From Pseudovirgaria hyperparasitica (lineage: Eukaryota), in the NCBI GenBank assembly GCA_010093815.1, contig ML996574.1: DNA of 64,000 nucleotides. One strand, 5' to 3'. The position numbers and the translations under genes are program-made. The notes below the pieces were generated by a model that was not told the DNA's origin, did not search any database, and saw only the letters and a list, made by a program, of their open reading frames with translations. Below are positions 36,499 through 64,000 of the stretch, piece by piece; position 1 is the stretch's first letter, and each line of letters opens with the position of its first letter.

Positions 36499-36915
36499 TT
36501 ATAGTAGCGTTCTAGTAGTTATATAGCGGAGATAGGTTCTTTATACTACGGCGTTATAGATTATTAGATCGTACCGTAGTAGTATATTATAGTTACGTTC
36601 TAGCGGTTACGTAGTAGAGATAGATTCCTTATATTATAGTATTATAGATTATATAATCATAAGATAGTAGAATCTTATAGTTATATTATAGCGGTTATAT
36701 AGCGGAGGTAGGCTCCTTATATTATGGTATACCGCGTCGTGTTATATGAAGGTAGGGTAGCCTATACACGAACCGCGCGTCCCATTTTATTATTATCCGT
36801 TTTAGGACTAGCTACTCTCTAGACTAGGGGTTATATAGTAGTAGTAGGGTAGCTTACGCACGACCCGCGTTTATTATTATTATTATCTATTTTAGGACCG
36901 GCTCTACCCCGGTCT
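36499..36915. repeat. Two internal tandem repeat arrays in Gypsy B (88-bp x ~2.6; ~92-bp x 2)
   Basis: Units start at 36499, 36587 and 36675 (TTATAG..CGTTCTAGCGGTTATATAGCGGAG..) and at 36752 and 36844 (GTAGGGTAGC..CACGA.CCGCG..TTTTAGGAC). Confidence 0.8.
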
Positions 36916-37049
36916 ATACGATTTTCCCTAACGTAAGTATATAGGTTCTATATCTAGCGACTTTCTTCTTCCTTAACTACCCTTACGTCTACTATCTTAA
37001 TACCGCGTAGTAGCTACTATAATATTAGTAAACTTATATACTACCTCAT

Positions 37050-38500
37050 AGCTTCTATACTATTATTATAAGCGCTCTAGGCCTAAATAGTCCTATTATA
37101 GAAGCCGGCGCCGTCTTGGCGGTAGCTATAGGTGCTAGAGGTTAAGACCCTAACGATTGTCGCGCGCCTAGGCGCTAGGAACCAGCTAATCGTACCGTGA
37201 GTAGGTCCTATCCCTACGCCGTTCCTTATACTAACTAGATAGACTATTCCTTCTACCGCACCCTAATAGACTAAGTCTATTTACTATATAGGGCTATATA
37301 TTATAGAGGGTAACTCGTTAGAAGACGAGCGTACCGAGTCCGTATACTTTATATATTATATATATATAAAGGCCCTAGAGAAAACTAGGGTACTTAGGTA
37401 TATGCCGTCTCTACGCCGTAGTAGCGCCTACTAATCTTAGAGTATAGCTATAAGCCTAGCCGTGGTACTAACTATATAAAGTACCACATGTTAAAGGGGA
37501 CCTACTTATAGAATACTAAGAAGCTCGCTATATACCCGGCCTTACGTAAGACGTAGAGTCGTCTTAAAAAGTTTATACACGAGTCGGTTAATAATAACTT
37601 TAGCTATATAACGGACTATAGTAGTCGCGGCCTAGACCTAATAAAGCCTTCGTCTAGTAAGTAGCCGCGTATAAACTCTAAGTTCTACCGTCTATATAAG
37701 GACTATAAGTCTAACTTAGAGATTATCTATATCGCGCGACGTAATACTAGTATTATTAGTTAGACTTCTATAACGCCTTATCGTGGCGCCATAACGTTAT
37801 TTAAGCCGCTATATTACGGTAGTAGTAACCGTGGCTAGATTAGTAGCGTGATTTACTAGATGAATTAGTATATATCCTATAACGAGGCCTAGATAGGTAA
37901 GCTATATACTAGTATTAGTACCTTATAGATATATAAGCTTTATAAGCCTAAATATCTATTCTAACGCGTAACGTAGGGTACTATATAGTAAGTCGCGTCT
38001 AGGTTAGCCCGCCTAGCGGAGCTACTATCTTACCGCCTTATTACTTAGGTAGTTATAGAGGATAAGGAGCCCTTATTAGGTAGTAGCTACTTACGCTAAC
38101 CCCGGCCCGTAGACTATAGAGAGTCGCCGACTCGGAGCTCTTACTATCACCCTATTAGGCCCCCCCGGCTCTCTATCGCCGCCCCTCCTTATAAGTCCTT
38201 ACTATCTTATTATTAGTTCTAGACCCCTCCTTACTACTATAACCGCTCCCGGTTCTACGAGCGTTATAGCCGGTCCCCCACCTACTATAATTAGTCTCCC
38301 CGCCATTATAACTAGTTATATAACTATTATAACCGGTTACACGACCGTTACTATCGCTTAGGTAGCTATCGGTACCGTTCCTATAAGAATCGTTAAGCGT
38401 CGCGCCGCTATCGGTCGCCGGTCTACCCCCGCTATAACCCTCCTATAGACGAGTATAACTCGCCCTTACTACCCGTCTAGATTAATAGCTACTATCGTTA
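37050..38500 (+). pseudogene. Antisense spliced Zn-cluster-like accessory gene of Gypsy B (RIP-inactivated; ends approximate)
   Basis: Intron-like segments at 37197-37242, 37398-37447, 37897-37976 and ~38049-38112, each with a GT donor, CTAAC/CTAAT branch site and TAG acceptor. The spliced frame de-RIPs to C-x2-C-x11-C-x7-C-x2-C-x6-C. Confidence 0.55.
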
Positions 38501-38775
38501 TTAGAAGACGGCCTAGAGGAGGACTAGATAACTAACCTTATATTAGAATTTGCGGATAAGGATAGTACCGGCCCCAGCGCCGTGTAAACCTAGGGTAGAG
38601 CTAGATAAATAACCTTTTTATATCTTAAGGCGGGTATCGGTTTATTATTAGGTTATACTAGGTACTAGCGTTCGGCGTTTATTTCTTTCTTTCCTAAAAT
38701 CTCTACTCTTATATTAGGTTATCGGGGCCGCTATAGGCCTATAATAGTAGAGTAATATTACTACTTAGGGATATG

Positions 38776-41700
38776 TTAGAGTCGTGGGTCGTTATATAAT
38801 CGAGCGTCGCTATATCTAGACTCGAACTAGTCTAGTACCTTAGTATCTTCTACGTCCTCGAGTAGAACCTATATTAGTTATAACTAACCTTTCTACTTTA
38901 TAAGCACCTATCGCTTATTCTACCCCTATATATTTTTTATATATAGAATATTCTTAACCTCGTACTCCGCGACGTCCTTATCTACTTTATTAAGCTTAAG
39001 CGCCGGGCCCGGATAGATGTTAAGCCGCTCTTAGCTAGATAGGGGGTCCTCTATAGCGCGCTTAATAAGGCTTATATAGACTATTTTATAAAGGTCTCTA
39101 GGGAGGTTAAGGGTTACTATTAAGAGGGTAGATTAGGCTATAACCTAGTATTTTATCTATAGCTAGTCGAGCTTCCGGCTCGGGTAGTTAGTCTTTATAT
39201 TCTAGAGGGAGAACTATACTATATCGCCGACCTTAAAACGCTCGGCCGGGTATTATAACCGGTTTACCAAGTCTTAGGAGCGCTACTTAGCCTAGGTAAT
39301 AGCCGCTTAAGCTAAGGTAGTACCGTCCTAAAGGTATTTAAGGAAATTTATAGCCTAACCTTTCGCTAAGGTCGTAGAGGCGTTAGAGAGTAGCTACTAT
39401 AGTAATAGTTCGACGTGGTATCCGTTTAGAAGTAAGTTTAGTACTATACTAGTTACTAACGAGATATAGTTATTAAGGGCGAGCTAATATACTAGGAGAT
39501 ATTCTAGCTAGTTAGTTTACTCGAAAGTTACTATAACGCGTAGTATAGTCTATACCTCCTAGTTCGCACGCTTAGTACTACCGTCCGTCTACGGGTAGTA
39601 GACCGTAGAGAGGTTCTAGCGTATATCTATTATAGAGTAGAGGGTTATCTAGAACTACCTAAGCTAGTCCGAGCCCTAGTCCGTAATTATTAACTAGGGG
39701 AACCCCTAGAAACGCTACTACGTGTCGCGGAACCGCGTAGCGTAGTCCTTAGCTACTATAGAGATTATCGCCTCTAGCTAAATAAACTTTAAAAGCCGGT
39801 CTATAATAATAAGAAGATATTAGGGCTAGAACGGGTCTAATTAGGGGAGGTCGGTTATAAAATCTATAGAAATTTAGGACTAGAACTAGTCTAGTATTAG
39901 AAGAGACTAGAGGAGGCTAGAGGCCTTACGTTAGTTTACGTGGGCCCTATAGTAGTTATAGTTTCGTATGAACTACCGGATATTAGTCTATATCCGCTTC
40001 TAGTAGTACTTCCGCCGAATAGCTATATAAGTCTTATTCTTACTAGGATAGCCCGCGAGGGGGGAGGTATAGAACTTCTAGATAATAGTTATAGTAAGGG
40101 GTTCCTACTTAGGTACCCTAATAACCCCCCGCTATATTAGTATTCCGTATACCGATATAGCGTAGTCTATAACCTATTTAGTAGTAAGCGCCTCTAGTAG
40201 AAAGAGGTATACCCCGTCTACTACGGCCCTATAGTAGGCCCGGTATACTAGGACTAACTAAATAGTCTAGTCCTAGAGCTCCTAGAGGTGGAGGTTAGTA
40301 AAGATACTTTATCTCTAGGGGAGATAGGACTCTCTAGAGCGGGTACTTACTAGTACTATTCTAATGGCCCGTGAGGTTATAAGCCGTCCCCTTAGAAGGG
40401 ACTTTTTAGATAAGTTCTAGTTATAACGGCTTAGGGTATCCGGGTAGACCGCCTAGGATCCCGGCTAGTATATAAGGTTATAGTTAAATAGTATAAGCTA
40501 GTTAGACTATTATTACTACCGTGGGATAAGAAGGTAAGACTTAGTAAAGTACTTAAGGTTTTTATAGTCCGTATAGACCGTAAAGGGGCGGTAGACGCTT
40601 CGGAGCTTAGGTTCCCACGCCTAGAGGCACTAAACTACTATAAGGAGCTTCTTATTATAGATTATATAGTTCCGCTAAGCGGCCGTAAGGGCCGTGGAAT
40701 AGTAGGCTACCGGGTGCTAAATACCCCGAACCTTTTAGGATAGGTATCTACCCGTCATATATCCGGAGTAATCTACCTTAACTATTATATCGCGTGTCTC
40801 GTTCTAGGACTAGAGGATTAGCCTAGTAATAAAAGCGTTCTTTAGCGTATTAAACGCGCGGTCCTTAGCTAGGCCCTAGTAGAAGGCCGTCCCGGCCTTA
40901 GTAAGGGCGTAGAGCGGGGCTACTATGGTAGAGAAGTTAGGGAGAAAGTTATAGTAGAAGTTTATAAATCTAATGAACTACTAGACGCCCCGGACCGTAG
41001 TTAGGGGCTTCTAGTCCTAGATAGTAGTAATCTTCTCTAGGTTAGGGCGGATCGACTCTCTAGTAGTAATAACGTAACCTAGGTACCGGACCTCCTTAGT
41101 AGCAAAACGGTATTTAGTAAGGTCGTAGTAAAGGTCCGCCTTTATAAGGAGAGATAGAATAGTTTTTACGGCGGCCTAGTGGTCTTCTAACGTGCCTAGG
41201 GTATATATAAGAATATTATTAAGATACGCTATATAGGTAACCCCGAGGACCCCGCTTAGTACCCTATTAATATAGCGCTAGAAGGAGGTAGGGGCGCCGG
41301 AGAGACCGAAAGAGAGAACTATCTATTTAAAGAGGCCGAACTGGGTACGGAAGGCCGTCTTATATTCGTCCCCGGTAGCGACCTATAGTTTATAAAATAC
41401 TACCCGGATATCTACCTTACTAAACCACGATATATTACTAATGGTATATAGGGTCTTGCGTATAAGTAGTAGCGGGTATTAGTTCTATTTAGTAATACTA
41501 TTAAGGGCCCTATAGTCGATATATAGCCGCTACTTCCCTCCCGGCTTAGAGATAAGGAGTACTAGCGCCCTAGCCGCTAAGGAGCTGGCCCGTATCTATC
41601 CCTTATCTATAAGATTCGTAAGCTAGCGGCGGAGCTCTATAAGTTATTCCCGAGATATAGCGTAGAGGGGTCCCTAGGGGAGGTTTATAGAGGTTCCCGC

Positions 41701-43735
41701 CGGTATAGACTTAATATAGATATAGTAGTTAGTATTCCCTCTATGGAGAGGTAGCGCCGATACCTTTTCCTTATTAAAGAGATTGCGGTAGGCGTGTAGC
41801 GTTAACGGGAGCGGGCGCCTATCCTCTATAAGCTCGGTCGCGTCCCGGTCGGGTACCGGAGGTAACTAGGGGAGTATAAGTTATAGAAGGCGGGTAACGT
41901 TACAGATACTAGTAGCGACTACTCGCCTACGGCGGTAAGCTATCTCTAGACCTCTAAGAATATGGCCCTTCTTAGTAAGGACCCGGATACTTATTAGGCG
42001 CCTATAGATATTAATATCCCGGGCTATAAGGCCGTGGGCGCGGTAAAGCGTAATTTTACCTACGTGTATATTAATAACGGCGCCGGCCTAGTAGAGCCAT
42101 AGGCTCCTAAGAATAAGATCCCGGTCTAGCCCGGGTACTATATAGGCGGTAAGGCGTTATCGCCACCCCGTAATATTATACTAGATAGTAATAACTTCTA
42201 TAATCTCCGGTCCTAACGCTCCGTTAGCGGCGAGAGCTACTTAATAATATAGAACTAAGATACGCGACTTAGCCACGTCCGCTATAAGGGCCGGGCTAAC
42301 TACCACGAAATACTCGCACTCTATATCTACTAAGGCGTCTATATACTTCCTATTCTAGAGGAATAGTAATATAACGGGTGGGGGTCTATCTATAACCCGA
42401 GCGGGCGCGCTATTCTCTAGGTCGGAGCCGTTATCCGGGTTACCTATAGCTTTATTCCTTACTAAATATAGTAACGTCCTCTAACCCGGGCTTTAGTAGG
42501 GGGCTATACTTCCCCCGCCTTAGAGTTAGAATTAGTATCGTCCTAAGCTAGGGCTATAACCTTGAGCGCTTATATATTAATAGCGTTTAGATAGCCCCGG
42601 TATTAGTAGCTAGCCTAGCCGTACTAGATATATACACCCGCCGTACGGTGCTTCTAGAATAAGTTCTTTAGGATCTATAAAGGAGTCTCTTTCTTCTTAA
42701 CCCTATCTCTACTCTTTACCGTTAGTAACGCGGCTTACTTCTTACCCTTTATCTTAATAGCCTTAATAGTAACCGCCGACATCGTTATATCGCTATTCTT
42801 ATCCTTACTAGGCCTATTTTAAGGTATGGTGCTTTACCTAGTACGGAGCTAGAATAACTCTATATCTATACTAATATCTCTAAGGTGGCCTATAGCGGCC
42901 TCGTACTAGTCTAGGAGGCCCCGGTTTAGGGCTACCGCCTAGGTCTCCTAGTTAAGGCCGTTCCGGAGCCGTATAAGCTTCTAGTTATTAGCCTAGTATA
43001 TTCCTCTAGCCTTCTAGAGGGCGGTATAGAACCGTACGAAGTACTCCGTAAACGGCTCCTTTACCTTTTATATAATTATATTTAACCGCTAGAGGGCCCG
43101 CTCTTTAGCATGTGTATCTCCGAACTAGAATTTAAGGTAGTCTAAGAACGTATACGGGTCCTAGTTGCCGTTTAGCCCCCTAGTAGAATATATAGCGCTA
43201 ACCCCCCTCTATATCTTAGGCGCTAGGTTAGCCTAAATAAGGGCTATTTAGTCTCTATAGGTGCCGATAAAGTTAGTGTCCCGGGTAATCTTATACTATA
43301 TTATAACGGACTATATACGGAAGAGGGCCTTAGACCTATTATATAGGTTACTAAGGGGGAGGGGCTTCCTCTTAGGAGCCCGGTTAAGTATAATATACGG
43401 CGTAGAAAGTGGTAAGGCGGGAGCGCGCGTAGAAAAGACTAGTTTAGGCCCGTATAGACGTTAGAGCGCTACTAGGGAGGAGTTAGGCTAGGGTAGAGAC
43501 GAGTCGCTATAAGTTAAGGTAGCGGGAGTACGGCTATATAACTCGATCGTAAGGAGGTAGGCGTTAATACGTTATAGAGCCGTATAGACGCTATATTCGA
43601 TATTAGATATCTAAGACTCGCTTACCGCTTAGGCGGCCGTAATAGACTTATAGATAGACCGTATCTCGTCCCGAAAGCTAAGGAAGGAGTTAGAGAGTTA
43701 CTATATTAGATTAGAGTCTTACGGGTTAAGACTAT
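38776..43735 (-). pseudogene. gag-pol of Gypsy B (gag, PR, RT, RNase H, integrase, chromodomain)
   Basis: Domain motifs readable through RIP-type TAG/TAA stops; ends approximate. Confidence 0.85.
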
Positions 43736-43784
43736 CTTATACTATAAGGCCACGTATAGAAAGAGATAATTAAAGTTAAATTAA

Positions 43785-43986
43785 TATAATAGATATAACT
43801 AAGGTATTACTATAATAGTAATTAAGATATATTATAATTTAACTTAGAGAGAGTAGGGATAAGCCGTATGGTTATAGCTTTAAGTATAGTCTTAAGCGAG
43901 GTCACGTGATACCCCTATACTAGTCTCTATCCGTCCCGGCTCCGTTATATAATACTAGAGACAAGGTAAAGCCGAAGTCTATAATA
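43785..43986 (-). repeat. 5' LTR of Gypsy B
   Basis: Direct repeat of 36148-36349; the differences seen are transitions. Confidence 0.93.
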
Positions 43987-47500: not shown

Positions 47501-48251
47501 TCGTGGTCGGAATCCGTCTATACCTAGTCTAGGCGGTAGTATTAGATCCGGTGACTAATATACTCCGTAGCGAAGGTAAGGTTAAGCGTAGACCCGTCTT
47601 TATCCTATTTATGTTTTTTCTATATAACTTATTCTATAGGTGTGAGTAGGTATAGGAAGTCGTAGTAGCGGGTGCGTAGTTCCCTTACTCTAAGTTCTTC
47701 CCTAACCATGGCTAGGCCTCCCTACTATTAGTAGTAGAGATTAAAGTCTCCTAGGAGAATATGTTACTCTAGTTCCGTAGTACCCTCGAGCATCTCGTCT
47801 AGTATAAGTATACGTTATTAGTTATATATGTTATATATATATAGGGGGCCTATATCTATTTATAGGTGTAGTATTATCCTAAGGTTATCGCGCTTAGTAT
47901 ATAACTATAATAAGAGTAGTATTAACCTATAAATGTGGAAGAGGACTCGTCTTTCTAGTCCTAGAGGGTATATAGTATGGTATCCGGGGTGTATGGTTGG
48001 TTTACTCGTCTAGTAGTATTTATAGGGTTCCTAGATAGCGAGTATTATAGCCCCGGTCTCTTCGAGGAGCGTCGCCTAGTTCTCTCTTTTATATTATATG
48101 TTTATCTATATAATTCGGAGTATATTCTAGTCCCTTATTAGATACTAGAGAGTATATATATCTATATACTTATTCCTCGGAGGCGCGACTATCCTCGCGC
48201 GGTAGCGGCTTTAACTATACCTTTTAGTCGTCCTATCGTCTTTGGGATAGT

Positions 48252-48492
48252 TATAAGGATTATAGACGTAGGATAGTAGTCTAACAGGTCATAGGAGGAT
48301 TCGGGAATATATTTCAAAGGGTAGTCTACTCTCCTAACGAGGTTAATTCCTAAAGAGTAGAAATTAAGTATATGCGGCCTACTTATATAGTGGTCTCGCT
48401 TATTCTAGCTAACTTACCCTGGGTCCGTCCTATCACGGACCGTACTAGACTATAGTATTATAGTTAAGTCCATCCTAGTGTTAGCCCTAATA
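48252..48492 (-). repeat. 3' LTR of Gypsy A2
   Basis: Direct repeat of 56023-56263; differences are C/T or G/A only. Confidence 0.95.
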
Positions 48493-48979
48493 ATATCCTT
48501 CTTCTTTTTGTGCTTCGCCCCGAAGTACTTAGCTATATGTAAATCCGTAATTCTATAAGCGTTATATTTATACGCGCATCCAATTAAATCTATGTAACGT
48601 TATTAATAGTCTTTATATTGGTGAACTTAAGCTCTAGTTTACTTTTATTTATACACGCGCTTATCCCTTACTTCATGGCTACTACCTTAGAGGTAGCTCC
48701 GCGGGTCATGTGACCGCTATATTAACTAAGCTTATATTTAGTTCTCTTATTCTAAATTTTCTTCTCTAGTATATCCACCTTACTCTTAAGGTAAGTCGTT
48801 AATTCGTATACTATCTCCTTTAGTTTAGATCCGTTCGGGTCTAGAGTGGTCTATTTTTATTAGAGCTGGTCCTATATAATCTATTCGCGTTATTACGGTT
48901 ACTAATTTAGCTTCTTTAATCGCCTTTAAGGCTGAACGAGTATTCCACTCTTAGATCTCTAGCTAACGTATGTGTATAG

Positions 48980-50283
48980 ATGTCTAATACTAGTCCTATT
49001 TCTAAGCCTGCCTCCTCCTCTCGCAAGACTCGCTCTAAAGGGATTACCTCTACCCCGGCTATACCGGCTAAAAAATCCACTTATCGTAGTAGTGTGAAGG
49101 CGCGCTCTAAGTTAGAGAAGAAGGTAGCTAAGGCTACTACTACTATTATTACTAACGTGGCCACTAGTCGCTCTAATCTAGGTAATCCTAGTACTAAACT
49201 TATAGATAAAGTGGTCGTAGGTTCTCCTCTCGCTCTAAAGCGTACGCCGTCTACTCTATCTCCTCTAGAGGATAAAGAAGATCTCGTTATAGACGATAAT
49301 CGCGAGCCCTCGCGCTTACCCACGCCGCCGCCTCGCCGCTCTTCCTTCCGGTCTAATATAGACTAATTTAGTCGCTCTAGGTCCTTTTAGGACCTTAATA
49401 TTCGCTCTAAACCCTAGCCTACTAATAATAAGGCCTAGGTCGCTAAGGATACTAAACGTGGTCGCGGTTTACGCTATAGGAAAACGGCAAACTACGGTTC
49501 GATATACTATAAGTATATTAAGAGCTATACGGCCGGCTCTAAATATCTCTTTCGCTCTAACTCTAGTATTAGCTACTACTCTACTAACCGCGATAGGCCT
49601 ATACGCCCTATCTTTACTCTACCTACCCGCTACCGCCGCTATACCGTAACTAGTAAGACTTATCTATAGGTAAGTATAATAGGCTATCTTAATCTAGTAT
49701 AATCTAAAGTAGTCCGCGCTAATATATTCTTAGGTTCCTATACGTATATAAGATGTATATAACGACCTTCGCGTCCGCGAGACCCTCGGGGGTCCTTATA
49801 GCCGCCTGCCTACTATATAGAGGGAGTTTAGGGAGCGCTATAAGCTCTTCCTAGAGGTTATTAAAGTGTAAGTTACGAGCACGTTAATTATTTTTAACAC
49901 CCGTTGATTTTTCTAGCCGCCGCGAGATCCCTAGCGCCTAGGCTACCTATTCTAGGGAGTCTATCCTAGCCATAGAGGTCGTAGAGAGGATTCGCTCTAT
50001 CCCCTCCTATCCGTCTCGCGCTACTAACGGATCTCGTAAGAGGTCTACTATTTCTCCCTCTAAGTCGCCTCGTAAGAGGGTATATATTCTATTCTAGATT
50101 ATTCTAGACCGCGTTGGCTAACTTTGGGTCTAGTCGCTCTACTCTAGCGCTTAGTCGTCGTCTTACTAGGCTCTAACTAAGCGCGTGGTTACTCTGGAGG
50201 ATAAGGTCTCTAACCTCCGTCGCTCTATTACTCGGTTAGTTCGTTCGCTACGCTCTAAGAGTAATAATAAGATGGAGGAGTAG
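48980..50283 (+). pseudogene. Antisense spliced accessory gene of Gypsy A2: basic disordered N-terminus, Zn2Cys6-like motif, C-terminal coiled coil
   Basis: Starts as ORF 48980-49366 and continues in frame through RIP-type stops. Introns at 49670-49733, 49868-49916 and 50080-50133, plus an upstream intron 48791-48979 ending directly before the ATG. Splicing keeps one frame to TAG 50281-50283. Confidence 0.72.
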
Positions 50284-50599
50284 CTCTATGGCTCTGTTTA
50301 CTAGGGTTTCTGTGTGGTGTGTGTTAGCTCTATCTACCTAGTTTCTGTCCGTTTTGGTCCTTTTTAGACCGTTTAGATACCCGTCTACTAGTTTTCTAGT
50401 AATTTAATTCTTAACTTAATAATATTGTGTGCGTTCTTATTTATTCTATAACTATTGAATTTTAGGTTCTAATTTCCTTTGAGTCACTTGAGTGTGGGCA
50501 TCGTATATAAATTAGTTTATCTCTCTAAATTATATTAGAGCACCCGAACCAGTGGCCCAGTGGTTATTAGTTCGGGTACTCTAACCTTTTGTATTATAT

Positions 50600-53500
50600 G
50601 TCACGAGTTTAATTCCGTAGTAGGGTACCTTTTTGGTTTCTTAGTCCTATGTTCTTCTCGTGTATAATGGTCTATATTGGTCTATTCTAGACTTCTCTAT
50701 GTTATTCTATTATAATGTATCGCGTCGCGTGCCTATAACGGTTGTTTACGTTTTCTTCGCGTTTAGTAACCGTGTATCGCTTGAATTATAGGGCTGCCTT
50801 ATAGAGTTTTCCTAGTGTGCGTTTAGGATTCGTGATTTAATACTTCGTTCTCTACGGTATCCTTCTTCTTTTTATAACGACCGTAACGTCGCTATACTTA
50901 CATTAATAATGCGCTATTCTATATCTTTTACTTATACGCAGCTATTATAGAACTTAAGATGTATACTACTGGTTCCTAGGTGTTCTCGTCCTTAGTGTAG
51001 TCCTTCTAACGGATTCTATATTTCTAAATACCGTCTTTATTAATCCCATGTTCGATAATATGGTCTACTTCGAACACGTCTAGTCTATCTTAGGGTATAA
51101 TAGAGTGTAACTACACGTTCGTGCGGCTATACATGTTAGGTCGAAATCTTTCGAGTAGTAAGACGTGGAATACGTTATGGATTCTTATATCGCTTTCTAA
51201 GTTAAGCTCGTAGACTCTTATACCGATACGACGTTTAATTCGGAAGGGACTAGCCATTTTATAATCGAGCTTCTTATTTACTCGCGACGTTCATATATTA
51301 CGGATATTAAGAAGGACCTTGTCGCCCTCCTCGTACGTCTAATCCTTAGCTAACCTATTATAGTACTTCGTATACGAGTTATTTACTTATTAGATTATAG
51401 CGCGATAGTTATATACGGTTTCGAAGATTTTAATCGCTAATTTCTAAGCGTGGACGTTCACGTCTATTATTTGATTAAATTAGACCGTCTAAGGCTTAAA
51501 ACCTATTCTTAGACTGCGTCCGAGGTTCGCCTAGAAAGGTATAATATCTATTATACTATAACGACTATTATTATATACGAACTCTACTATACTTAGTAGG
51601 GAGGCCTAGTTATCCTACTTAAAATTATAGAATGCGCGTAGGTAGGCCTCGAGCGTCTGGTTCTATCGCTCTATCTAGCTATCCGTCTAAGGATAAAATG
51701 CTATAGACATGTTTCTATTCATGCTTGCCATTTCGTAGAATAACGTCTAGAATTTAGACGTGAAGGTACTTCCTCGGTCCGTAACGATCCTTTTTAGTAT
51801 ACTATGGACCTTAATAATCTCGTTCTAGAATACCTGCGCTAGTTCTTTAGATGTAATTGTCTTCTATACTAGGATATACCTAGATATCTTTATGAGTCTG
51901 TCTATGATAATAAGAATAGAATTATAACTTATTCTAAGCATCTCGCTTAGAGGCAAGTTAACTATAAAGTCTATAGTAACGTCTTCCTACATAAAGAGGG
52001 GGGCTAAAAGAGGCTATAAATTCCTATATAGCTTATGCCTAGGGGCCTTCGTTCTTTAATAAATCGGATAAGTAGCTATCTATTCTTTAACGTACTTAGG
52101 TATATCTTCCTAAAAATAGTACTAATGAATTAAGCTTAGGGTACGTATATATCTAAAGTATCCTACTAGGTTAGTGTTATAGTATTAGCTAACTACGTTA
52201 AATCGCGTGTTACCCGTTAGTATATAGTACTTTCTATTATAGTAAAGTAAGCCGTCTACGAAGGTCTACTTATAGTCTACTTTAGTCTATAATAACCCAT
52301 CTTACTATATTTTACGTAACTTTAAAACTATCGGGTCTATCTTCTATAGATCCACGATTAACTAGGCGAGGTTAATTAGATATTTACGCTGGGTATTATC
52401 GTCCTTCCCGACAGCGCTAATAAACGGCCTACTAGGGACTTCGGTACCGCGTCTTTGGTTACCGGCTTCGGTCTTAGAGATTTAATTACCGGTATCGACG
52501 TTAGTATCTTACTAATCGCCTAATAACTTAAAATCTAACCTTATCCTTAAGAGTTGGGTCTATAGCTACTCTAGGACCCTATAGCTACCATAATTCTAGG
52601 CGCCTTCTTTATAGTTAGGTCTTCTTAATATTCTATTAGCTAGGTTTATACTTCTAGGTTAATAGTAGATTATAAAGTAAAAGTTCGTAAGCTACTTAGC
52701 CTATTAGACCTATCGACGGTTTAAAACCGTCGTGCTTATAAACCCCTTTAAGTTATAGTAATTAGTTAGTAACTTAATGTTATACATGGTACCTTTAAGA
52801 TAATATCGCTACTATTTAAACGACTCTACTATTACTAGTAGCTCTTGGTTATAGATAGTATATCTAGTCTTAATATTAACTATTTTACGTGAGAAGAACG
52901 CAACTAGATACTATTAGACCTTTTTAGACTTAGTTAGTCTAGGCTAGGAGAGAATACCTAAGATTATAAATTCTAACGCGTCGGTTTTAACGCGGATAGG
53001 TTTAGTCGGGTCGAAGTACACTAGCAATGGGGTAGTTATAAATGTCTCTTTAATTTTCTCGAAGGATATTCTTTCAACCTTAGTTAATTTAATAGGTTAT
53101 AATTTAATATTATACTATTTCTATCTACTACGGACCGTAATAGACGAGTCGGTAGTAGTAGTACGCGCATTAAGTGGTGCGGCTAAACGGGAGAAGTACT
53201 TAACAAATTTTCGGTAGTAATTAGTAAATCTAATAAAGACATGTATATCTCGAACCGATTTTAGTTTAGGCTAGTCCACGATAGTAGCAACCCTATCTCT
53301 TTCTATAGTTATACCTTAATTAGTAATAACGAAGCCAAGGAAGTTAACGTGGTCCTAGTGGAACTCGCATTTAGATAGCTTAATATATAGCTTATATTTT
53401 TCTAGCCTATCTAGAACTACGCGTACGTGCTAGATGTATTCTTCTTCGTTATTAGAGAAGATAAGAATGTTATCGAGGTATACGATGCACGTCATATCGA

Positions 53501-55800
53501 GTAGACCTACTAGCGCGTTATTAATATACGCTTAGAAGGTTCCTAGCGCGTTAGTTAGTCTAAAAGGGACTACTATATACTCGAAGTATCTATAACGGGT
53601 CCTAAACGCCGTTTTCTACTTATCGCCCTTCTTAATATATAGGCGGTAGTAGGTATCGCGTAGATCGAGCTTAGTAAAGATCTTTACGCGCCCTAGTCTA
53701 TTAATAGACTCGGAGATAAGAGGTAGTGGGTAACGATTCTTTCGTGTAATATTATTTAGGCTATAGTAGTCGATATATAGACGGAGACTCCTATCCTTCT
53801 TCTTTATAAAGAGGATTAGAGCTCCGGCTAGGGATATACTAGGCCTAATCTATCCTTGCGTAAGGTTCTTTTCGATATATTCTTAGAGGACCTATAGCTC
53901 GGGTTCTAATAGAGGGTAGATGGGTCCGTGTAGGGGTTATTAACCGTCTTTAAGGTTAATAGTAAGGTCGGTAGGTTAGTATTAAGGTAATTTAGACGAG
54001 TTAATCGCTAACGCGACATGTTAGTATATTTTATACTAATATAGTAGGTTTTCGTCTACTTTAATACTAAGCTCTCTATTTTAAGTAAGTAAGAGGACGT
54101 AGATAGCGGAGATTGCCTTTTCGTAGTCCTTCTAGAATTATTCGTCGTTGACTAGCTATACTAGGTTCTATTATAGTGGGTACATGCGCCAGCCAGCTAT
54201 TTTCTAGATAAAGTCTAGTTTCGGGTTATGTTTTTCGAGCTATAGTATACCGAGAATCATATCGAAGGGACTATCTACCACGATAAAGGTTAAGTAGTAG
54301 GGTTTCCACTTCCCCCCGCTATCCTAGATGCCGTATTTAATAGTATAGGTACCCTACGATTTAATGGGACCATCGATACCATAGAAGGTGGCACCTATTA
54401 GTACTTAAATATCGACGTTAAGTTCTCGTGCTTATTAAGTCGATATAATGTTAGTGGCTAAACCGCTATCGAGCATTACGGTCTAATATTATCCACGAGA
54501 GACCTCGATGGGCCTAGCCTATAGTTCGATGTACTAGTTGGCTAGTTATCCCTCTATTTTAGTTGCGTCTATAAGTCGCGAGGGTTTCTTATAGGCTATT
54601 AGTTTTTTATGTTCTATGCTAGGTAGTTAGGCGCGATGTGTCCTAGCTACTAGCACTTATAGTATATAACTAGTTAGTTAGTTATATTAGCACTTAGTGG
54701 CTTCCCCGAACGGCACTTAGGTACTATATAGCCTATTCTACTATAGGTATAGTAAGTAACTTTAGGTTATTTATGCGAGTCGGTCCTCGTATCTTAATAT
54801 ATCGATTAGTAGGGAGATCCACGATACGATCCGCGTGGTTTTAAATTCGAGACGTAGTAGTAGCCTTATAACGTCCCACGAGATCTATTACTAAATCGGT
54901 TTTAGTTAGATAATTTTACGTTAGATTAGATTATTAGGGATAGTCGTACACTAGCGCGGCGTTAATTATTCATTATACGCTAGTATCGCTCTACGAGGTT
55001 TATAAGAGCTTAGAGGTCTATAGAGATTATCGTTATAAGGTCGAGACGGTCCTTTATATTTAGGGCGAGGGACCGTTTAAAGTCATCGTACTATCGAATT
55101 ATATAATCTTCTTCGGCTTCTCTCTAGAGGGGCCGAAGGTATTTAAGAAGTTATAACGGTAACTAATTATCTCGTTGTCGAGTCTTAAAGATATGGCCCT
55201 AGGCCTAGTCGCGTCGTTTAGCCCTATCGCTAAAATATTAGAGGAGAAATTCGGTGAACGTATCCTAGTTATAGGCATCCTTAGGATGTTCGATTCGGTA
55301 TACTATCTAACGTTCTAAAGGCGTCGGGTCGAGGTAGTTCTAGGCGAATCTAATTTTATCGCTATCGTTCGTGAATAGATAGAAGAATTAGCTATATTAG
55401 TAAGCCTATGCGTGGAAACTCTTTCTACTTTTACTATCGAAGTAAGGTAGTTTCTTAGATCGGGGTAATTAGGATAGTAGTAGACTAGAATAGATCGTTT
55501 TAGTTGGTATGGGTCCATATAAATATAGATTAGTCGTTACTAGAACTAAAGCGCGTAATACAGCTTTAAGTCTCGTAGTGCGTCCTTAAGCTTCGTCGAG
55601 TTCGCGTAGTTATTACTCGAGTTAAACCTATCGTTACCTCTCTTCGTGTAGTCTAGTATATACGTCGTTATAAGGTGTAGTTAACATTAGGCGATTCTAA
55701 CGGATTAACTCGTTAACGTTAATAAGGTCTAGCCTCATGTTAAGGTTAGGTCTAGTATGGTTTAAACTAGACTAAGATGGAGTATAATAGACTCTATCCT
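50600..55800 (-). pseudogene. gag-pol of Gypsy A2
   Basis: PR-RT-RH-IN-chromodomain motifs in Gypsy order with RIP stops; ends approximate. Confidence 0.88.
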
Positions 55801-56022
55801 CGTATTCTATAACATCTTCTATATTTATATAGAATATCGTGCGAGTTATCGGTGCGATAGTCTATAAGGTATAGTTATTGGTGGGGGTAGTTATAGGTAG
55901 ACTATTCTCCTTATTTAGGTTGGGAGAAGGTCTACCATAAGAGGCGGTGCCACGAGTGTTATGACGAGTAGTTAGAGCTATTTCTATAAACTACCATCGT
56001 GCTATATAAAGAGGAATTAAAA

Positions 56023-56263
56023 TATAAGGATTATAGACGTAGGATAGTAGTCTAATAGGTCATAGGAGGATTCGGGAATATATTTTAAAGGGTAGTCTAC
56101 TCTCCTAACGAGGTTGATTCCTAAAGAGTAGGAATTAAGTGTATGCGGTCTACTTATATAGTGGTCTCGCTTATTCTAGCTAACTTACCCTGGGTCCGTC
56201 CTGTCACGGACCGTACTAGACCATAGTATTATAGTTGAGTCTATTCTAGTGTTAGCCCTAATA
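56023..56263 (-). repeat. 5' LTR of Gypsy A2
   Basis: Direct repeat of 48252-48492, followed by TSD ATAGT. Confidence 0.95.
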
Positions 56264-58140
56264 ATAGTCTACTATCCTATCTAACTACCTTCCGGAGGGG
56301 AGGTTAGGGGTATTATAAAGGAAGGGCTCGTAGTAGGTATTATATTCTATAACTATCTTACGCCTCTCGCTTTTATCGTACGAATGTATTCTATAATCTA
56401 TTTACGTTTTATATACGTTAACGACTATAACGGGTATTTCCCGTTGTAGTTTAAATACTATACTATGTCCCTGTTTCTTAGTCCGTCTCCTCGCGGTTTA
56501 TAAGGGCACTTCTAGATAGCGTAGTCCCTACGGTACTATCCGTACTTAGTCTTCTATAAGTATCTTTATATAGTATATCTATACCCTTCATATTACCCAT
56601 GCTCTATCCTATGGCTCGGCCATAAGGAGCTCTCCTTCTATTAGGAATCCCTCCTATATAATATATTATATAAGGGCGGGGTCTCGGAGCTCTATAATTA
56701 TAGTAGAGTGTTTTTTCGCCGTCGTCTTAATCGTCTATAGGTTCTTCTACCACGCTTTCACGATCTTAATCCCTAGGTATTTTCGCGTGTTAGATTATTC
56801 TATACGCGTAATATTCTCCGCTCCGATAGCCTATCCCCGTACGGGTACTATATATACTATAATCGGGTATATAGCTACCCTAATAGACGCGCTAGGGAAG
56901 ATACTACCTATCGCGTTCGGATCTCGCGAGATGTTTTACTACGTAGTATTCGTTATAGTAGTAAGTACTACCCTACCTAGCGTAACTTTAGTAGCCACGA
57001 CGCTTAACTATATTCCTTTCTATTTATTAATCTTATTTATAATTTCCTTTAGGGATGCCTATTAGACCTATGCCAGCGTGTCCTTATCCTAGATTATAAT
57101 ACGTATACTATATACTCTATCTATAGTCCTAGTAGTCCTTAGTGCGGTAGCTCCGGGTATTACTATAATCTAAGCCTACGTGTTAGGGCGCTTACCTTAG
57201 GATAGCTCTTTCTAGATTCTCCATAGACTAGCTTCTATTTGGTTAAGCCTACTACTAGGTTCCTCTTATGGCGACTTCCTTTCTTCCTCTATAATTCCTC
57301 TTAGGTTCTAGATAAGGTCCCGGAATATATAAAGAAGGGTCTTCTTTCCCTCCTTAGCGTCCCTCTCTATATATATTACCTAGTATTTAATTTTATCTAG
57401 AAGGGTCTCCCCTCTCGGGGTCCCCTCGGTCTAGGTTATCTATAGCGCTTCGTACCCTTAGTTAGTTCCTATATTTTAGATAGGTGTCTAGCTATCTATA
57501 TTAATGTCGCTATATGGCCGTTTCTACTATACTAGTGGGGGTATATCCGGCGTATACCGGGGTATTACGATACCTAAGGCCGCTATGGTTATTAGTTAAG
57601 GGCAGCCCTTAACTAATAAAAGGGGGTCGGCGTGTTAGCGTTTATTAGATATAGTCTATACTCGTGTTATCGAAGAGTCTTCGAGCGTATATATATAGTG
57701 TCTCTATACGTCGGTATCGTCGCGTATTATATACTATACGTACGCACGTGTGTTGGAGGTTATTATACTCGGTATACTCTATCGTTTAATGTATGTAAAT
57801 CGCTATTTTACCCTAAATTGACTAGTTTGGTCCGTTAGGGTGTGAGAAGTTTTTTTATTATATTTCTTATAGAATATATAAAGGTAGGTCTTAAGCGTTT
57901 AGTTCTATCACTCTATCTAACTATCTATTTATAGATAGAATACTATTAATATATTTCTATTTATACCGGCCATTTCGTAGAATAACGTCTAGAATTTAGA
58001 TATGAATATACTCCCTCGGTCCGTAACGATCCTTTTTAGTATACTATAGACCTTAATAATCTTATTCTAGAATACCTATGCTAGTTCTTTTAATATAATT
58101 ATCTTCTATATAGGGACGTACCTAGATATCTTTATAAGTC

Positions 58141-61100
58141 TATCACGGAAAGTGACAAGGAGACGAATAACGGTAAGAACTACGGACTGAAGGTCCGATA
58201 TAGATAGCCGTAGATTCTATGAAGTAGCTAGTAATTAATTTAATACTTAACCAAGACTTAACATCTCTGTCCTTAACATCTTGGTAGCTAAAAGTATACC
58301 ACCAGCTAATCATTTTCGAAAGAAAGATAGTACTAGTCGAATATAAGACACTAACGCCCCGACGTACTAGTTCTCCGAAGCCAAATTAAAAGACGTTAAT
58401 ATCCCGACTTAGTAAACGAAAGACGCTTCCGTAAAATTTAGTAAAAGAAGTTCATGAAAACGGTAAGATAATTAGTAAGAATAAGAGAATACTAGGCACT
58501 AGGTAACGTTCGTTACCGTTACCATCATTAAGACTCGTAAGAGTATTAAATTATAAAAGGAGTCCTAAGGAAGGAGCCACGGGAACGGTAAACAAAGGAT
58601 TTGCCACTAGAGGAAAACAGGAATGAGTATCCGCTTTGAAGGCCTTACCTTATTCTAACCATACTAATTTCCGTAAGACTTATTCTAGAGTATTATAGAA
58701 ACGTAGTATAAGTACTAGTGTTTCTAAACGAGTCGTGCATTAAAAGGATCGAGCTCCCTACGATTCCCTAGTTCCCGTTAAGTAAGGAACACGATACTAT
58801 ACCACGACCGGTCACACTTAGTGCTAGTCGAACCCTACTTTATAGGAATAGGTTAGTACTAATTAGACGAGACGATTAGTACACGAAGCCTCGGTTTCCG
58901 CGAGCTACTAAGGTTAGAGTAGGTTCCTACTAAACATTCCTAATTATCTAAGTATACTAGAGAAGCTCACGTCCGCGCCTCCTGCGGCCGACATTCTTAG
59001 TATACTTAGGAACACATAAGATATACTAGCTCCCTTACTGGTATTATAGAAGGAACCGATTCCTAAGCTATTAGAGTAAGTTATTAAAATAGCTTATTAA
59101 CTTATTTATTACTTTAAAGATAGCCTACTACATGAATTAAACCCCTATACCCTTATCTTACTTCGAGGTATTACCCACGTATACCTAGAAGTCTTAAGAA
59201 ATCGAAATTGTTTACGGTCTAGGGGTAAATAGCCTTAGAAAGATAGATATTCTCCTAACTAGAACTATCTCGTGAATAAGGATTACGGAATACGTCTAGC
59301 GACTACCGAAGCTATAAAGGTCGAAAGGCTAGCGGTAAATTTCCGTTAATCTAAATATTTCAGTAACTTTAGAAACTTCGTATAGCTAAGAGAAGTAAAT
59401 TTACCTTCCTCGTCCCCTCTATCATTAATTGAAGTTCCTACCGCGCTAAAGAAAAGGCCCGTAAGACTATAAGACTTCGAGTTTCACGACGAAACCGTGA
59501 GACTAGAGAACTCCAATTCTCGCGAGACGATAATCTCTAATCCTTACGAGGCGATTATAGTACTAGAGAATCCTTATTAGAGAGGAAGCTCGAGCTAAGG
59601 CGTAGAGAGAAGCGGAGAGCAAGTCGGAACGCCTTAAAGCCTCGAGCCTCCAATCCCGGCTCTAATTCCAGTTCCTATTATGGCTTAGTAAGCCTAGCCT
59701 AATCTGCTAAGCGTAGAAATGATCGCGTAAATTACGATGATAGTTTTAGCGGTACTTAATAATCGTGAGAGGGTAAATCCTCTAGTAGAATAAAGTAGAG
59801 CTAGCTAAGTCGCGCCCTCTTAGGAAAGGCCTTAGGGAAGAAATAAAGAAGAACTTTCTAGAGACCGTCCGTCTAGAAACGACTACCATAGGTAAGCTTA
59901 GCCTATAGTAAGAGTTTTAAGGAACGATAATAATCTAAGTAAAGGCTTAGACGACGATCTATAGGGAGACGACGATAGAGCTCGGGGTTACCGTTATAGA
60001 TTATATATGCCCCTATATCGTCGCCGGTGAACTACGGAAACTAGAGACTATAAAGATAACGATAGCTTAAATCTAAGAGACACGAAGTTTAGAATAGAGG
60101 ATATTAGATTCTTCGATCCGAGTATAGATCCTTCAAGAATAGAAGATGTTTATAATAAGAATAGAAAGGTCTATTATAGATCCGTTCAGCCGTTTATCGA
60201 CGTAATAAGGAACTATTAGTAGACATGCCCTGCGAAAATCATTCATTACAATCTCTATAAGTGTCTTAGAGGCACGGCGTAAATTTGGTATAGCTCTTAA
60301 TTAAGCGACGCTATAAAGTTAAGTCTTACTAGCGGAGATGGACTTAAGCGCTAGGTTAAGAAACTCGAAAAGAGATTCTCTATACCTCTAAGTGCCGCCT
60401 TAAAGAGACTCTAAGGCATATTATATGGCCCCGAGAACTTATATGGAGGCTAGAGCACGACTAACTATGTTATAAAAGTACTTAGGGCTTATAAAGAGGC
60501 AAATTTGAAATCTAAAGTACTTATTATAGTATAGGCCTAGAATAAGCTCGACCTAAGATTTAGGGTAAGCATAGAGGAACCCGGATCTAATACTAATCTA
60601 GATACCTTTTATAAACAGCTCGAATAGAAGTCATAGACCTAGCGTGAACTCTATAAGTAGAGTAAGTTTAACTATTCCCATTCTAGTAAAGCGTTATAAG
60701 ACTAGTATCCGTCGAACTACTATCCTCGTAAAGAAAAAGAAGTCGGAAATAACTACTTTCAAGGGAACCGCGGGACGCGATATAGTAGTAGCGGCGGACG
60801 AGAGGACCGCCCTAATAAGTTTCAGATAATAAAAGAAAGTAAGAAAGTAATCTAAGTCGTATCTTCTTAGATAAACGAGTAAAGGTCTAGTAAAGACCGC
60901 GGTTAAAACTAGTATTAAGGTAGAGACCGTCGCCTATATAAAGTAGACCGTCGCCTATATAAAGGGAATAGTAAGTATTAGCTAAAGAGTTTTAAAAAGA
61001 CCACGATAACTTCTATACAAGTTAAGAGGCAACCTTATATAAAGCCGTAACGCGCCTATTATAATACTATCCTAGTAGAGTTTCTCGATTAAGAAGGATC

Positions 61101-64000
61101 GTAAAATAAAGAAGACTCGCCGGACGAAGATTAGGGCGGATAAGCTTAAGAGTAAGCTAAAGAAAGCCAGTCGGACGAGGAACCTTATAAGAAGTTAGCT
61201 AGAGTTTTCTTCGTAAGAACTAAGGAAGTTAAGACTCTACCGGCACTATTACTCGAGAAACCGTAGAAGAGTAAAAGGACTATAGCGAGGAACTATCGCG
61301 TCTATGGATAAAAGTATCCTTCTAATAATAAGCTATATTAGTATATTACGGAAAAGCATCTAAAGAAGCTAGTGGATCACGTATATATGGTGGACGAGTT
61401 TCCGTCGCCCCTACTAGTACCACAAGTTATTAAGAGTACCGTAAAAAGGATAGGAACGAAAGGCCACCGCTTTCGTTATTAGAACTATATTATAATAAAC
61501 GTAATATTAAACGGGACCATGGAGCCTAAATAAATAATCGTAGATACTAGAGTAAAGCTAAGTCTCGTAGATAGAAACTAGCTAGCTATAGTCCTACTAG
61601 ATTATAAAAAGCATGTTACGAAACTTATACACCTAATAGTAGTTATGGGTATTAGTAATAAGGTTTATAATAGCGACGAGTCCGTTAAAATAATACTTAT
61701 AGTACCTACTACCGTAGAAGGAACCGACGTTACGGTTACTATTAAATGCGAAGCACGTATTATCGAAAACCTAGTACTAAAACTACTAATGGGTATAGAT
61801 ACCATTAGTCTAGAAGAAATAGATATTAAAGTTTAAAACCGTATAATTACCTTTCCATACGGCTAAAATGCGGTAGCTCCTATAAGCGTCCGTCTAAGAT
61901 ATAAGAAGTAGTTAAATATCATAGTAAGAGCGTAGTACTTAGTATCTATCGAGCCTAATTCAAGAGGCGTGGTTCTTATAGACACACGTAACCTCCTAAA
62001 TGATCGCGATATGCTTTTTAAACCTACGAAAGAGTACCTCTCCGCTACCGGGAAGCGATAAGCCGTAATTTATACGGTAGTTATCGACTCTAGTAGTGGA
62101 GGAATCGTAATTAAGAATGACAGAAACGAGACACTCGTAATTCCGAGGAATACGGTGCTCGGTAAAATCCGCGAACTAGACATTATAGAATGCTACTAAA
62201 TCTCTAATGCTAACGTAGATCTCGCTACCCTTCCTCCCTTAGAAGCCGTAAATATTAACCCTAAGCTCGAGACTCGTCTCCTAAACGGAATAATGCTCTA
62301 TGGTAGGGAAGAGAAGGCTATAAAATATAAAGAACTCATTAAAGAGTTTATAGAGTTATAGCGAGATAAAAAATCTATTATAAACTCTAGGGAAGTAAAG
62401 CTTATCCTTATGAAGGACTGGCGCGAACTTAAGAAGTTATATACTAGAGTATATAACGTCGGCCCTCGGGACCGTAAAGCAATTAATAAAACCTTTGACG
62501 GGCTTTATAACGACGATAAAATAGGTTAGAGTAAAAAGCCTACCTAATTCGGCTCCCTAGTTTTTATTATCTAGAGAGAGGTCTATGATCCAAAGATAAA
62601 TGGGCTGATATGGAAACCACGCGTAGTGATTAACATTAGAGGCCTTAATATAATTACCGTTAAAGATTCCTACCCGTTAATAAGAATGGATGACATACTC
62701 TAGGCTAGCCGAGATTGCCACTATATCATAACAATGGACGCTATAAGTATATTCTACTAATGGTTAGTATAAGAAGAAGATCGTGAGTAATTCATGGTAA
62801 ACACCTATAGGGGTTAAGAATACCTAAAAGTTCTTACCATAGGCTACGTTAATTTAGTCCAGCACGTGTAACGGGAACTTGATAATCTCCTACGAGAGTT
62901 CCCATAGGCGAAAGCCTATATAGACGATATAGTAGTTTTCTCTAAGATATTCGAAGAGTATATTTATCATTTACGGTAACTATAGAGTATACTATTAAAC
63001 TTTAATATGTCTCTCGCCGTAACCAAGACGTTCGTCGGGTATCCAAGTACTATAATCCTTAGAAAAAGAGTTAACGCCTTCGAACTATCTTTAAAGGTAG
63101 AAAGAATTATAGCTCTAAAAGAAATATAGTTTCTAAAAGATACTATAGCGCTTAAACGATACCTAGGAATGGCGGGATATCTACGAGGATAGTTACTATA
63201 CTATACATAGTTAGTCTTACCGTTACTAAAAGCTAGTACTAAGCTCTTCCGCTATGCCCCTCGTAAAAAGACTTAGCGAAAAGTATAGGCCTCGAAAAGG
63301 CCAGTTCCATAGACTAAAGTACTTATCGAATCATTTTAAGCTATATAAGGACTATGGGATAACCCGATCTTCTATTATTACTATAAGCCGGTAAGATATA
63401 CGTTCCTAGACGTCGACGCTTTAAAAGAGTATAGCTTTAGAGTCTTTATGTACCATGTTCGCGGGGACCTAGATCTAGTAATATCGTTAGTTCCGGTTAA
63501 CGATCCTATCGATCCTAACGAGACTAATCTTAATCTACTTAACCCCCTAAGAATATCGTGGCTACGTTAGGTAGAATTATTCCTAAAGGAAGTAATATAA
63601 CTAATATTGTTTCTTAGTAAAGCTATCACGGTAACTAAACGAAACTATTGGCCCATAGAACTTGAAATGGCTGGTCTGGTTTAGTTAGTAACTAAACTTC
63701 GACACTTTATTAAATTATTAGTATAGTTTATTATATTCACGGACCATACCGTAATAACGGCTATTATATATCAGACGAAGCTCTCTAGCATAGCCGCCGA
63801 CTATAAGAATATCCGTCTTATCCGAGTAGCTTAATATCTCTTATAATATAAGCTCGATATCCGATACCGCCCTAGTAGGAACTATATTATGCTAGACGCT
63901 CTTAGTAGGCTTATAAGTACGGCGCCAGCCGTAGAAGGTAATATGCTAGATAAGATCGCATAGGCTTTTACGATCGGTAGCGATAAAGGGATAATTACTA
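58141..64000 (+). mobile_element. Ty3/Gypsy LTR retrotransposon, family D (5' part; runs off the window), RIP-degraded
   Basis: Homology to A2 stops at 58140 and TATCACGG (RIP form of TGTCACGG) begins. Probable short LTR to ~58278, then PBS-like TGGTAGCTA at 58282-58290. Gag FRIEDI(G)FFDP...CLRGTA..WY, protease IVDT(G), RT AYIDDIVVFSK (~62910-62945), RNase H DVDA(S)KE...NYWP(T)ELE. Confidence 0.9.

Follow-up and report, generated by a model that had tools for sequence, protein, structure and literature searches.

A candidate spliced gene antisense to gag-pol in a RIP-degenerated fungal chromovirus

What is encoded, and on which strand, between the pol end and 3' long terminal repeat (LTR) of a retrotransposon that has been degraded by repeat-induced point mutation (RIP)? 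The question is raised by element A2, a Ty3/gypsy chromovirus with gag-pol on the minus strand, which lies in a 64,000-nt stretch of the Pseudovirgaria hyperparasitica genome (GenBank assembly GCA_010093815.1, contig ML996574.1; hereafter, the window). An earlier note on this DNA had proposed that the interval carries, opposite gag-pol, an intron-bearing gene for a Zn(II)2Cys6-like protein. We conclude that the family represented by A2 (family A) probably did carry a genuine accessory gene, oriented against gag-pol and housed in a module of 2.36 kb that separates pol from the 3' LTR, and that RIP has destroyed it in both copies found in the window, A2 and the more heavily mutated A1.

The predicted gene has its coding start at ATG 48980 and consists of four coding exons separated by three short introns of the ascomycete type. 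The parts of the model are listed here.

48791 to 48979, plus strand: putative intron 1 in the 5' untranslated region, 189 nt (GTAAGT ... GCTAAC ... ATAG, followed by ATG); weakest part of the model
48980 to 49669, plus strand: exon 1, 690 nt, 230 codons, with the ATG start, a basic N-terminal region rich in S, T, K, R, and P, and a Tyr-rich end
49475 to 49663, plus strand: Tyr cluster within exon 1, residues 166-228, with 12 of the 20 Tyr of the protein
49670 to 49733, plus strand: intron 2, 64 nt (GTAAGT ... GCTAAT ... TTAG)
49734 to 49867, plus strand: exon 2, 134 nt, the weakest exon
49868 to 49916, plus strand: intron 3, 49 nt (GTAAGT ... TTTAAC ... CTAG)
49917 to 50079, plus strand: exon 3, 163 nt, helical-looking and then a basic stretch rich in S, R, and K
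50080 to 50133, plus strand: intron 4, 54 nt, in frame, with three stops (GTATAT ... GCTAAC ... CTAG)
50134 to 50283, plus strand: exon 4, 150 nt, including the terminal TAG
50173 to 50250, plus strand: leucine-zipper-like heptad repeat in exon 4, with Leu at four successive d positions and V, V, I, and L at the a positions
50284 to 50857: non-coding spacer separating two convergent ends, that of the antisense gene and that of pol
34061 to 35371, plus strand: A1 copy of the antisense gene, more heavily RIPed, with an identical exon/intron layout

Joined, the A2 exons (690 + 134 + 163 + 150 = 1137 nt) give 379 codons with 10 internal stops (8 TAG, 2 TAA, and no TGA) before the terminal TAG. All four intron-like intervals of the earlier note are where it placed them and carry the signals it quoted, and its frame of about 380 codons with only TAG and TAA stops is recovered once the three internal introns are removed. 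The A1 exons also join in frame (1143 nt, nine internal stops). The gene (48980-50283) lies on the plus strand between the minus-strand end of pol and the 3' LTR, which is the position and orientation of an antisense additional open reading frame (aORF) of the aORF-3R kind. The dimensions of the interval need correcting: pol had been taken to end at about 50600, leaving some 2.1 kb, but the match to the chromodomain stops near 50931, and the tail of pol extends to about 50858. Since pol ends near 50860-50930, the interval measures about 2.36 kb. A stretch of the spacer that looks tRNA-like by eye (50540-50590) gave nothing with ARAGORN or Rfam.

In the AT-rich half of the window (32000-64000), across all six frames and at a stop frequency of 0.0907 per codon, the second-longest stop-free run is the 128-codon run at 48980-49363. 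The density of stops in the antisense model (10 of 378 codons, 2.6%) compares with 79 of 1141 codons (6.9%) in A2 pol. One should be cautious with such counts here, since a minus-strand frame is also near-open over 48913-49362 and makes them ambiguous; signals that do not depend on stops were therefore used. RIP converts CpA/TpG to TpA. The phase of TA dinucleotides was counted at codon positions 1-2, 2-3, and 3-1, each exon being read in its own model frame, and the contrast between positions 2-3 and 3-1 is unaffected by the earlier selection of low-stop frames.

In five of six known pol segments, 57-66% of the TA dinucleotides outside positions 1-2 fall at 3-1 (46% in the shortest segment). 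Exon 1 has a TA phase of 18/18/68, with p=5e-8 for the 2-3 versus 3-1 contrast. Exons 2-4 (5/5/10, 3/3/12, and 5/3/11) together have 11 TA at 2-3 versus 33 at 3-1 (p=0.0013). The phase is flat in introns 2-4 and in the spacer (28/27/27 over 50284-50900). The exons of A1 prefer the same phase as those of A2, with 6/6/12 in exon 2 and a weak 8/10/7 in exon 4. A sliding scan of 635 windows of 150 nt over 32000-64000 returned 37 with at least 60% of TA in one phase, and 13 of these 37 fall within the antisense gene. The other strongly phased windows lie mostly in A2 pol or in other degenerate elements (element B, described below, and 58200-63450).

Codon-position composition points the same way. 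Third-position A is 0.12 in the antisense gene and 0.28 in pol, and the share of third-position pyrimidines (Y3) in the gene is 0.66; CGC accounts for 29 of 48 Arg codons and TCT for 31 of 58 Ser codons. A coding scan with a position-specific composition score, trained on exon 1 alone, is positive in frame mod 0 over 49762-49815 (within exon 2) and in frame mod 1 over 49906-50067 (exon 3) and, weakly, over 50158-50266 (exon 4). It is negative over 49636-49760, 49816-49905, 50068-50140, and past 50284, where the signal is gone; all three frames are negative in intron 2, and the scanned part of the spacer (50284-50420) is negative as well. Upstream, the coding signal begins abruptly at 48972-48990, and for this reason ATG 48980 fits as the start. 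The TA phase lock, the codon-position composition, the frame-specific scan, a zipper pattern unique in the region, and the presence of the gene in both copies bear out the earlier proposal of an intron-bearing gene antisense to gag-pol.

Several results weigh against this reading and should be kept in mind. Exon 2 is weak in its TA counts, and its coding scores are negative at both ends. Transversions between A1 and A2 fall at 13/12/23 by codon position, a mild third-position lean; the two copies are related and are not independent replicates, and the near-open minus-strand frame described above belongs here too. Searches for relatives came back nearly empty: exon 1 has none by protein word search, and an exhaustive HMMER search of 1.84 billion representative proteins gave one match, a repetitive low-complexity protein (P0004). 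The read-through of exon 3, intron 4, and exon 4 has no protein relative, residues 154-229 have none in the ESM Atlas, and no exon has a Pfam homologue. With a relaxed intron consensus, each strand of the RIPed DNA offers 56 candidate 5' sites in 32 kb. A partner lies no more than 70 nt away for 16 of those on the plus strand and 17 of those on the minus strand, or about 0.5 per kb on either strand; as intron-like motifs are this common in RIPed DNA, splice motifs by themselves are weak proof. Such motifs are the basis for proposing intron 1, and the function and promoter suggested below are inferred by analogy.

Further searches concern the same gene. A 26-nt gene motif had 0 matches in metagenome contigs, and a protein-seeded metagenome scan yielded 597 pattern matches, none of them confirmed; a viral-contig scan gave one locus (L001), which was rejected, its match being limited to the seeded 8-mer with unrelated surroundings. 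An upstream coding exon in 48496-48790 was likewise considered and dropped, for its TA phase (9/23/14) hints at coding but the stretch lacks an exon-1-like coding score and has four stops.

Is the gene spliced? The plus strand might be coding but unspliced, with separate short ORFs or one ORF that has suffered old frameshifts, and with intron signals that are look-alikes made by RIP. The frequency of intron-like motifs speaks for this, as do intron 4, which is in frame, and a continuous frame over about 49725-50283 with only 8 stops in 186 codons. We nevertheless find it unlikely, because three short consensus introns occur within 464 nt where about 0.24 would be expected, and introns 2-4 each span a stop-dense, phase-flat, negatively scoring stretch. 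They connect frames mod 2, 0, 1, and 1 in turn, exactly as the TA phase and the coding scan require, so that the best-consensus splice sites join precisely those exon frames that were inferred independently. The reading frame is lost if the splice runs instead from 49744 or 49755 to 49916, and likewise if exon 2 is skipped.

Comparison of the two copies argues for splicing as well. There are three A1/A2 indel events in 2.8 kb: one in the LTR, one of 6 nt and in frame in exon 1, and one of 1 nt in intron 3. As intron 3 is 50 nt in A1 and 49 nt in A2, only splicing keeps both copies in frame. The density of A1/A2 transversions is highest in intron 3 (18.4 per 100 nt) and is 2.5-5.5 in the exons. 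On balance, the three internal introns of the antisense gene are probably real.

The same comparison yields a separate observation. The transversions cluster in 49198-50051 (A1 34284-35140), in blocks that differ by about 50% but match in length, whereas 48496-48979 and 50080-50283 are free of them. A1 and A2 would accordingly be mosaics, as might result from recombination between diverged sub-lineages of the family.

Where did the module come from? Two features frame it.

48494 to 48509, minus strand: polypurine tract at the edge of the 3' LTR, one arm of a perfect 16-nt direct repeat
50858 to 50873, minus strand: the other arm of the repeat, with the 16-nt polypurine sequence again, in the pol tail (KKKKD)

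This direct repeat brackets the accessory module, none is expected from 100 shuffles, and A1 holds a matching pair at 33575-33590 and 35946-35961. A one-mismatch copy of the sequence also occurs in the reverse transcriptase (RT) region, at a KKKD motif (53792-53807). The GC content of the module is 0.45 compared with 0.37-0.39 in gag-pol, and its low third-position A stands against the value for pol and 0.17-0.26 in host genes. The bracketing repeat and the differing GC and codon-position profile suggest that the module was added to a canonical backbone of pol, polypurine tract, and LTR, and it may be captured host DNA. Antisense introns could survive in such DNA, since they are not spliced from the genomic RNA. 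A DNA transposon with terminal inverted repeats was considered as the source and rejected, as there are no inverted repeats at the module ends.

These same properties (the deviant composition, the duplicated polypurine tract, and the retained introns) would fit a mere passenger, that is, a host gene with introns gained by read-through or recombination and of no use to the element. We regard this as rather improbable. No host paralogue or other relative turned up in the word search or among the 1.84 billion proteins searched with HMMER, and an origin by capture is compatible with a later function. The module is, moreover, present in both of the two window copies that span the region, in line with the occurrence of an aORF in most copies of its family. 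Two DNA runs (X1 and X2) contain the family in many copies, and in them repeat-derived contigs cover every one of the 30 bins of 48496-50950. Being present in both copies and covered by thousands of such contigs, the module was evidently kept while the family amplified, which favors an accessory gene of the element.

The same two runs permit a side comparison of A2 with other family members. Counting variants with a share of at least 5% over 48496-50950, the other repeat contigs have A for an A2 G at 71 places and T for C at 37, and the reverse changes occur at 25 and 22 places. Within its family, A2 seems to belong to the less mutated copies.

What kind of protein would the gene encode? The product has about 378 residues and is very basic (K+R 80 versus D+E 27; S 58, R 48, T 32, K 32, P 26). 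RIP raises the content of S, T, K, N, and I, while that of R is not raised; the RIPed translation contains no C, H, Q, or W. The N-terminal half is rich in S, T, R, K, and P; next come the Tyr cluster and a short middle part that looks helical, and then a basic patch of S, R, and K and, at the C-terminus, a zipper of four heptads. The zipper-like tail described in the earlier note is confirmed as a distinctive feature, its 8-position pattern being found once, at 50173, among about 64,000 codon positions (six frames of 32000-64000). A bZIP protein has a basic region (N-x7-R/K) directly contiguous with its leucine zipper. The 13 residues before the first zipper Leu have no K or R and Pfam gives no bZIP match at E<=1, so this class was rejected. 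The heptamer CGCTCTA, which occurs 11 times in the gene, was also set aside as a DNA-level signal, since 16 Arg-Ser dipeptides, together with the bias towards CGC and TCT codons and RIP of TCC-A, account for it.

The Tyr cluster is where a zinc-binding domain could have been. The gag zinc knuckle of A2 now reads Y-x2-C-x4-H-x4-Y, the integrase C-x2-C reads Y-x2-Y, and only two Cys are left in the 1141 residues of pol. Because RIP has changed Cys ligands of gag and integrase to Tyr, a former Cys/His-rich domain is plausible here, and the cluster may once have been one. The specific claim of the earlier note, a Zn(II)2Cys6 binuclear-cluster DNA-binding regulator, is not supported, and we consider it very unlikely. 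The motif of this family (PF00172) is CX2CX6CX5-12CX2CX6-8C. If the Tyr at positions 172, 176, 177, 179, 183, 189, 199, 200, 218, 221, and 228 are read as Cys, there is no valid assignment of all six. Half of the motif can be matched, by Y218-x2-Y221-x6-Y228 alone; Tyr 239, the next in line, has no CxxC partner, and the two CxxC-like pairs are 38 residues apart.

In its favor, the claim has that triplet, the concentration of Tyr in residues 166-228, and the loss of Cys elsewhere in A2. Against it, residue 177 is Tyr in A2 and Phe in A1; both window copies carry TAY at the candidate ligand codons and neither shows a Cys; and the cluster is central rather than N-terminal, with the zipper about 115 residues away. 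Among 40 of the 176 variant places of runs X1 and X2 relative to the A2 module, there is no change in a Tyr codon. Pfam returned no family at E<=1 for any exon (Zn_clus, bZIP, TRP28, and SMC included), and a miss for PF00172 is expected either way, as the RIPed translation has no Cys. The resemblance to Gal4-type Zn(II)2Cys6 factors thus extends to a basic protein, a possible ex-Cys cluster, a coiled coil, and one half motif, and it fails in the six-Cys spacing and the atypical position of the cluster; a profile match is absent.

The weakest alternative makes the minus strand coding, with a third sense ORF downstream of pol expressed from the element's own RNA, and it is hardly credible. Between about 48950 and 49320 a minus-strand frame does have as few as 1-2 stops per 100 codons, and it includes a 93-codon stop-free run (49084-49362). 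But this frame is open over just some 450 nt and lacks a start codon, and its TA fall at positions 2-3 in 36 of 49 cases, the opposite lean to that seen in five of the six known pol segments. None of the minus frames stays open across 49700-50300, and a protein search of the frame found no homologues. A frame that avoids TTA, CTA, and TCA across codon boundaries is, besides, expected to leave its mirror frame open.

A plus-strand accessory gene, then, should be compared with what is already known of such genes. The closest in its setting is brtn, cited from the fungal chromovirus Boty as an antisense gene that lies between pol and the 3' LTR (PMC7264820, PMC8365987). It is reported from Boty-like Ty3/gypsy elements of Botrytis cinerea and Sclerotinia (PMC7264820, PMC8365987, PMC4227169, PMC5987419), and BRTN proteins are stated to be deposited in public databases (PMC5987419). 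Both hosts are fungal Gypsy elements with a chromodomain, and in both the extra gene is antisense to gag-pol between pol and its element's 3' LTR; what sets them apart is that the family-A gene has no sequence similarity detectable in protein searches, brtn being known here through citing papers. The novelty suggested by the earlier note must therefore be narrowed: an antisense gene at this position is already on record, whereas our literature search, whose coverage excludes the primary description of brtn and the supplements of the papers, found no multi-intron antisense gene described in a fungal chromovirus. A figure legend on fungal Gypsy elements and one spikemoss element (Novikova 2010; PMC2864245) does mark an 'add. 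ORF'.

Plants provide further cases between pol and the 3' LTR, namely Grande gene23, RIRE2, Retand TRP28, and PvRetro13, and the functions of such ORFs are given as unknown in the passages concerned (PMC7264820, PMC11963269). According to the same passages, Grande gene23 is nuclear and has its own promoter, and DNA binding is predicted for Retand TRP28. The likeness lies in position, orientation, and presence across family copies, and also in tandem repeats in that region, as in element B. The plant ORFs belong to non-chromovirus lineages, however; the family-A gene has no TRP28 (PF04195) or SMC Pfam match, and a multi-intron structure is not described in those passages. One review calls for a search for antisense and spliced transcripts of LTR elements (PMC7264820). 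The family-A protein shares the aORF architecture and has no homology to the aORF families BRTN, TRP28/PF04195, and SMC; the architecture is known, the protein new, and its spliced layout probably new.

How might the gene work? HBZ of HTLV-1 has basic regions and a C-terminal leucine zipper and acts on transcription of its own element. It is antisense-encoded, starts in the 3' LTR, and is spliced (PMC1459196, PMC5797633). This makes it the closest working analogue of the family-A gene, which is likewise antisense, near the 3' LTR, and basic, with predicted splicing and a C-terminal zipper. HBZ differs in coming from a human retrovirus, in having no homology to the family-A protein, and in its true bZIP basic region contiguous with the zipper.

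By analogy with HBZ and Grande gene23, transcription would start from a promoter beside or inside the 3' LTR. The introns, being antisense to the genomic RNA of the element, would remain unspliced there and would be copied at each retrotransposition. Most likely, the product would act in the nucleus, as a dimer that binds nucleic acid and regulates expression of the element itself; a role as a DNA-binding self-activator or anti-silencing factor is speculation. A bolder version, which we think quite unlikely, holds that a fungal chromovirus lineage independently evolved an HBZ-like accessory gene, antisense, near the 3' LTR, and multiply spliced. The protein, basic and dimeric and equipped with a zipper and a Cys/His domain that binds metal, would control transcription of the element or counter host defence. 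The introns would be passed on in antisense through reverse transcription, and intact copies would still be found in relatives where RIP is weak.

LTR retrotransposons seldom have their accessory genes annotated, and none of these genes is of known function. If the multi-intron gene is genuine, modules of this kind arise repeatedly (in plants, in Boty, and in family A) and encode unrelated proteins. It would also follow that retrotransposition can carry introns along as long as they are antisense to the genomic RNA, and that a retrovirus-like regulatory layout, as in HBZ, exists outside retroviruses. For the annotator of heavily RIPed DNA, tests of TA phase and codon position recover coding frames where ORF finders and homology searches fail.

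The surroundings of the gene can be set out briefly. The first half of the window (1-32000) has about 50% GC and unremarkable eukaryotic genes (for PP2C, importin-beta, Dus, and a PAN-domain protein), and the second half (32000-64000) has 31-45% GC and nested, RIP-degenerated LTR retrotransposons. The RIP indices of the candidate region are 2.22 for TA/AT and 0.17 for (CA+TG)/(AC+GT). The features of A2 itself follow.

48252 to 56273, gag-pol on the minus strand: element A2, a RIP-degenerated chromovirus
48252 to 48495, minus strand: 3' LTR, 95.5% identical to the 5' LTR over 244 nt
56023 to 56266: 5' LTR, partner of the 3' LTR
50874 to 55700, minus strand: gag-pol, riddled with RIP stops, with zinc knuckle, RT, RNase H, integrase, SH3, and chromodomain

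Pfam matches on the minus strand of A2 include RVT_1 (6e-24), RT_RNaseH_2 (1.1e-16), and SH3_Tf2-1 (1.8e-13), with two RNase H families represented. The Chromo match (17.1 bits) falls under its cut-off of 25.1 bits, and those to H2C2 and rve (14 and 12.5 bits) are under theirs; such scores are expected, because the sequence is RIP-damaged. With its LTRs, gag zinc knuckle, RT, RNase H, integrase, and C-terminal chromodomain, A2 is a Ty3/gypsy chromovirus. A1 is a second, more heavily mutated copy of the same family; its segment 33330-36122 aligns to A2 48248-51034 with 86% identity, and it is interrupted by an unrelated nested chromovirus, element B (36150-43986), to continue at 43987. A third family-A fragment, related to integrase (67% at the protein level), lies beyond A2 at 57869-58144 on the minus strand.

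Just outside the 5' LTR of A2, the plus strand has 163 codons without a stop (56574-57062), the longest such run in the AT-rich half, with no Pfam family. Element B also has a long interval, of about 2.4 kb, between pol and its 3' LTR (36350-38800), with three 88-nt tandem repeats (36483-36746). No similarity was found between this region and the antisense protein of family A. A plus-strand frame in it, at about 37300-37750, has few stops, a TA phase lock of 13/13/30, and no Pfam match, and may be a second, unrelated antisense ORF. The pol frame of element B runs past the chromodomain in an 89-codon stop-free tail (38176-38442, minus strand) that is rich in G, S, Y, N, and R.

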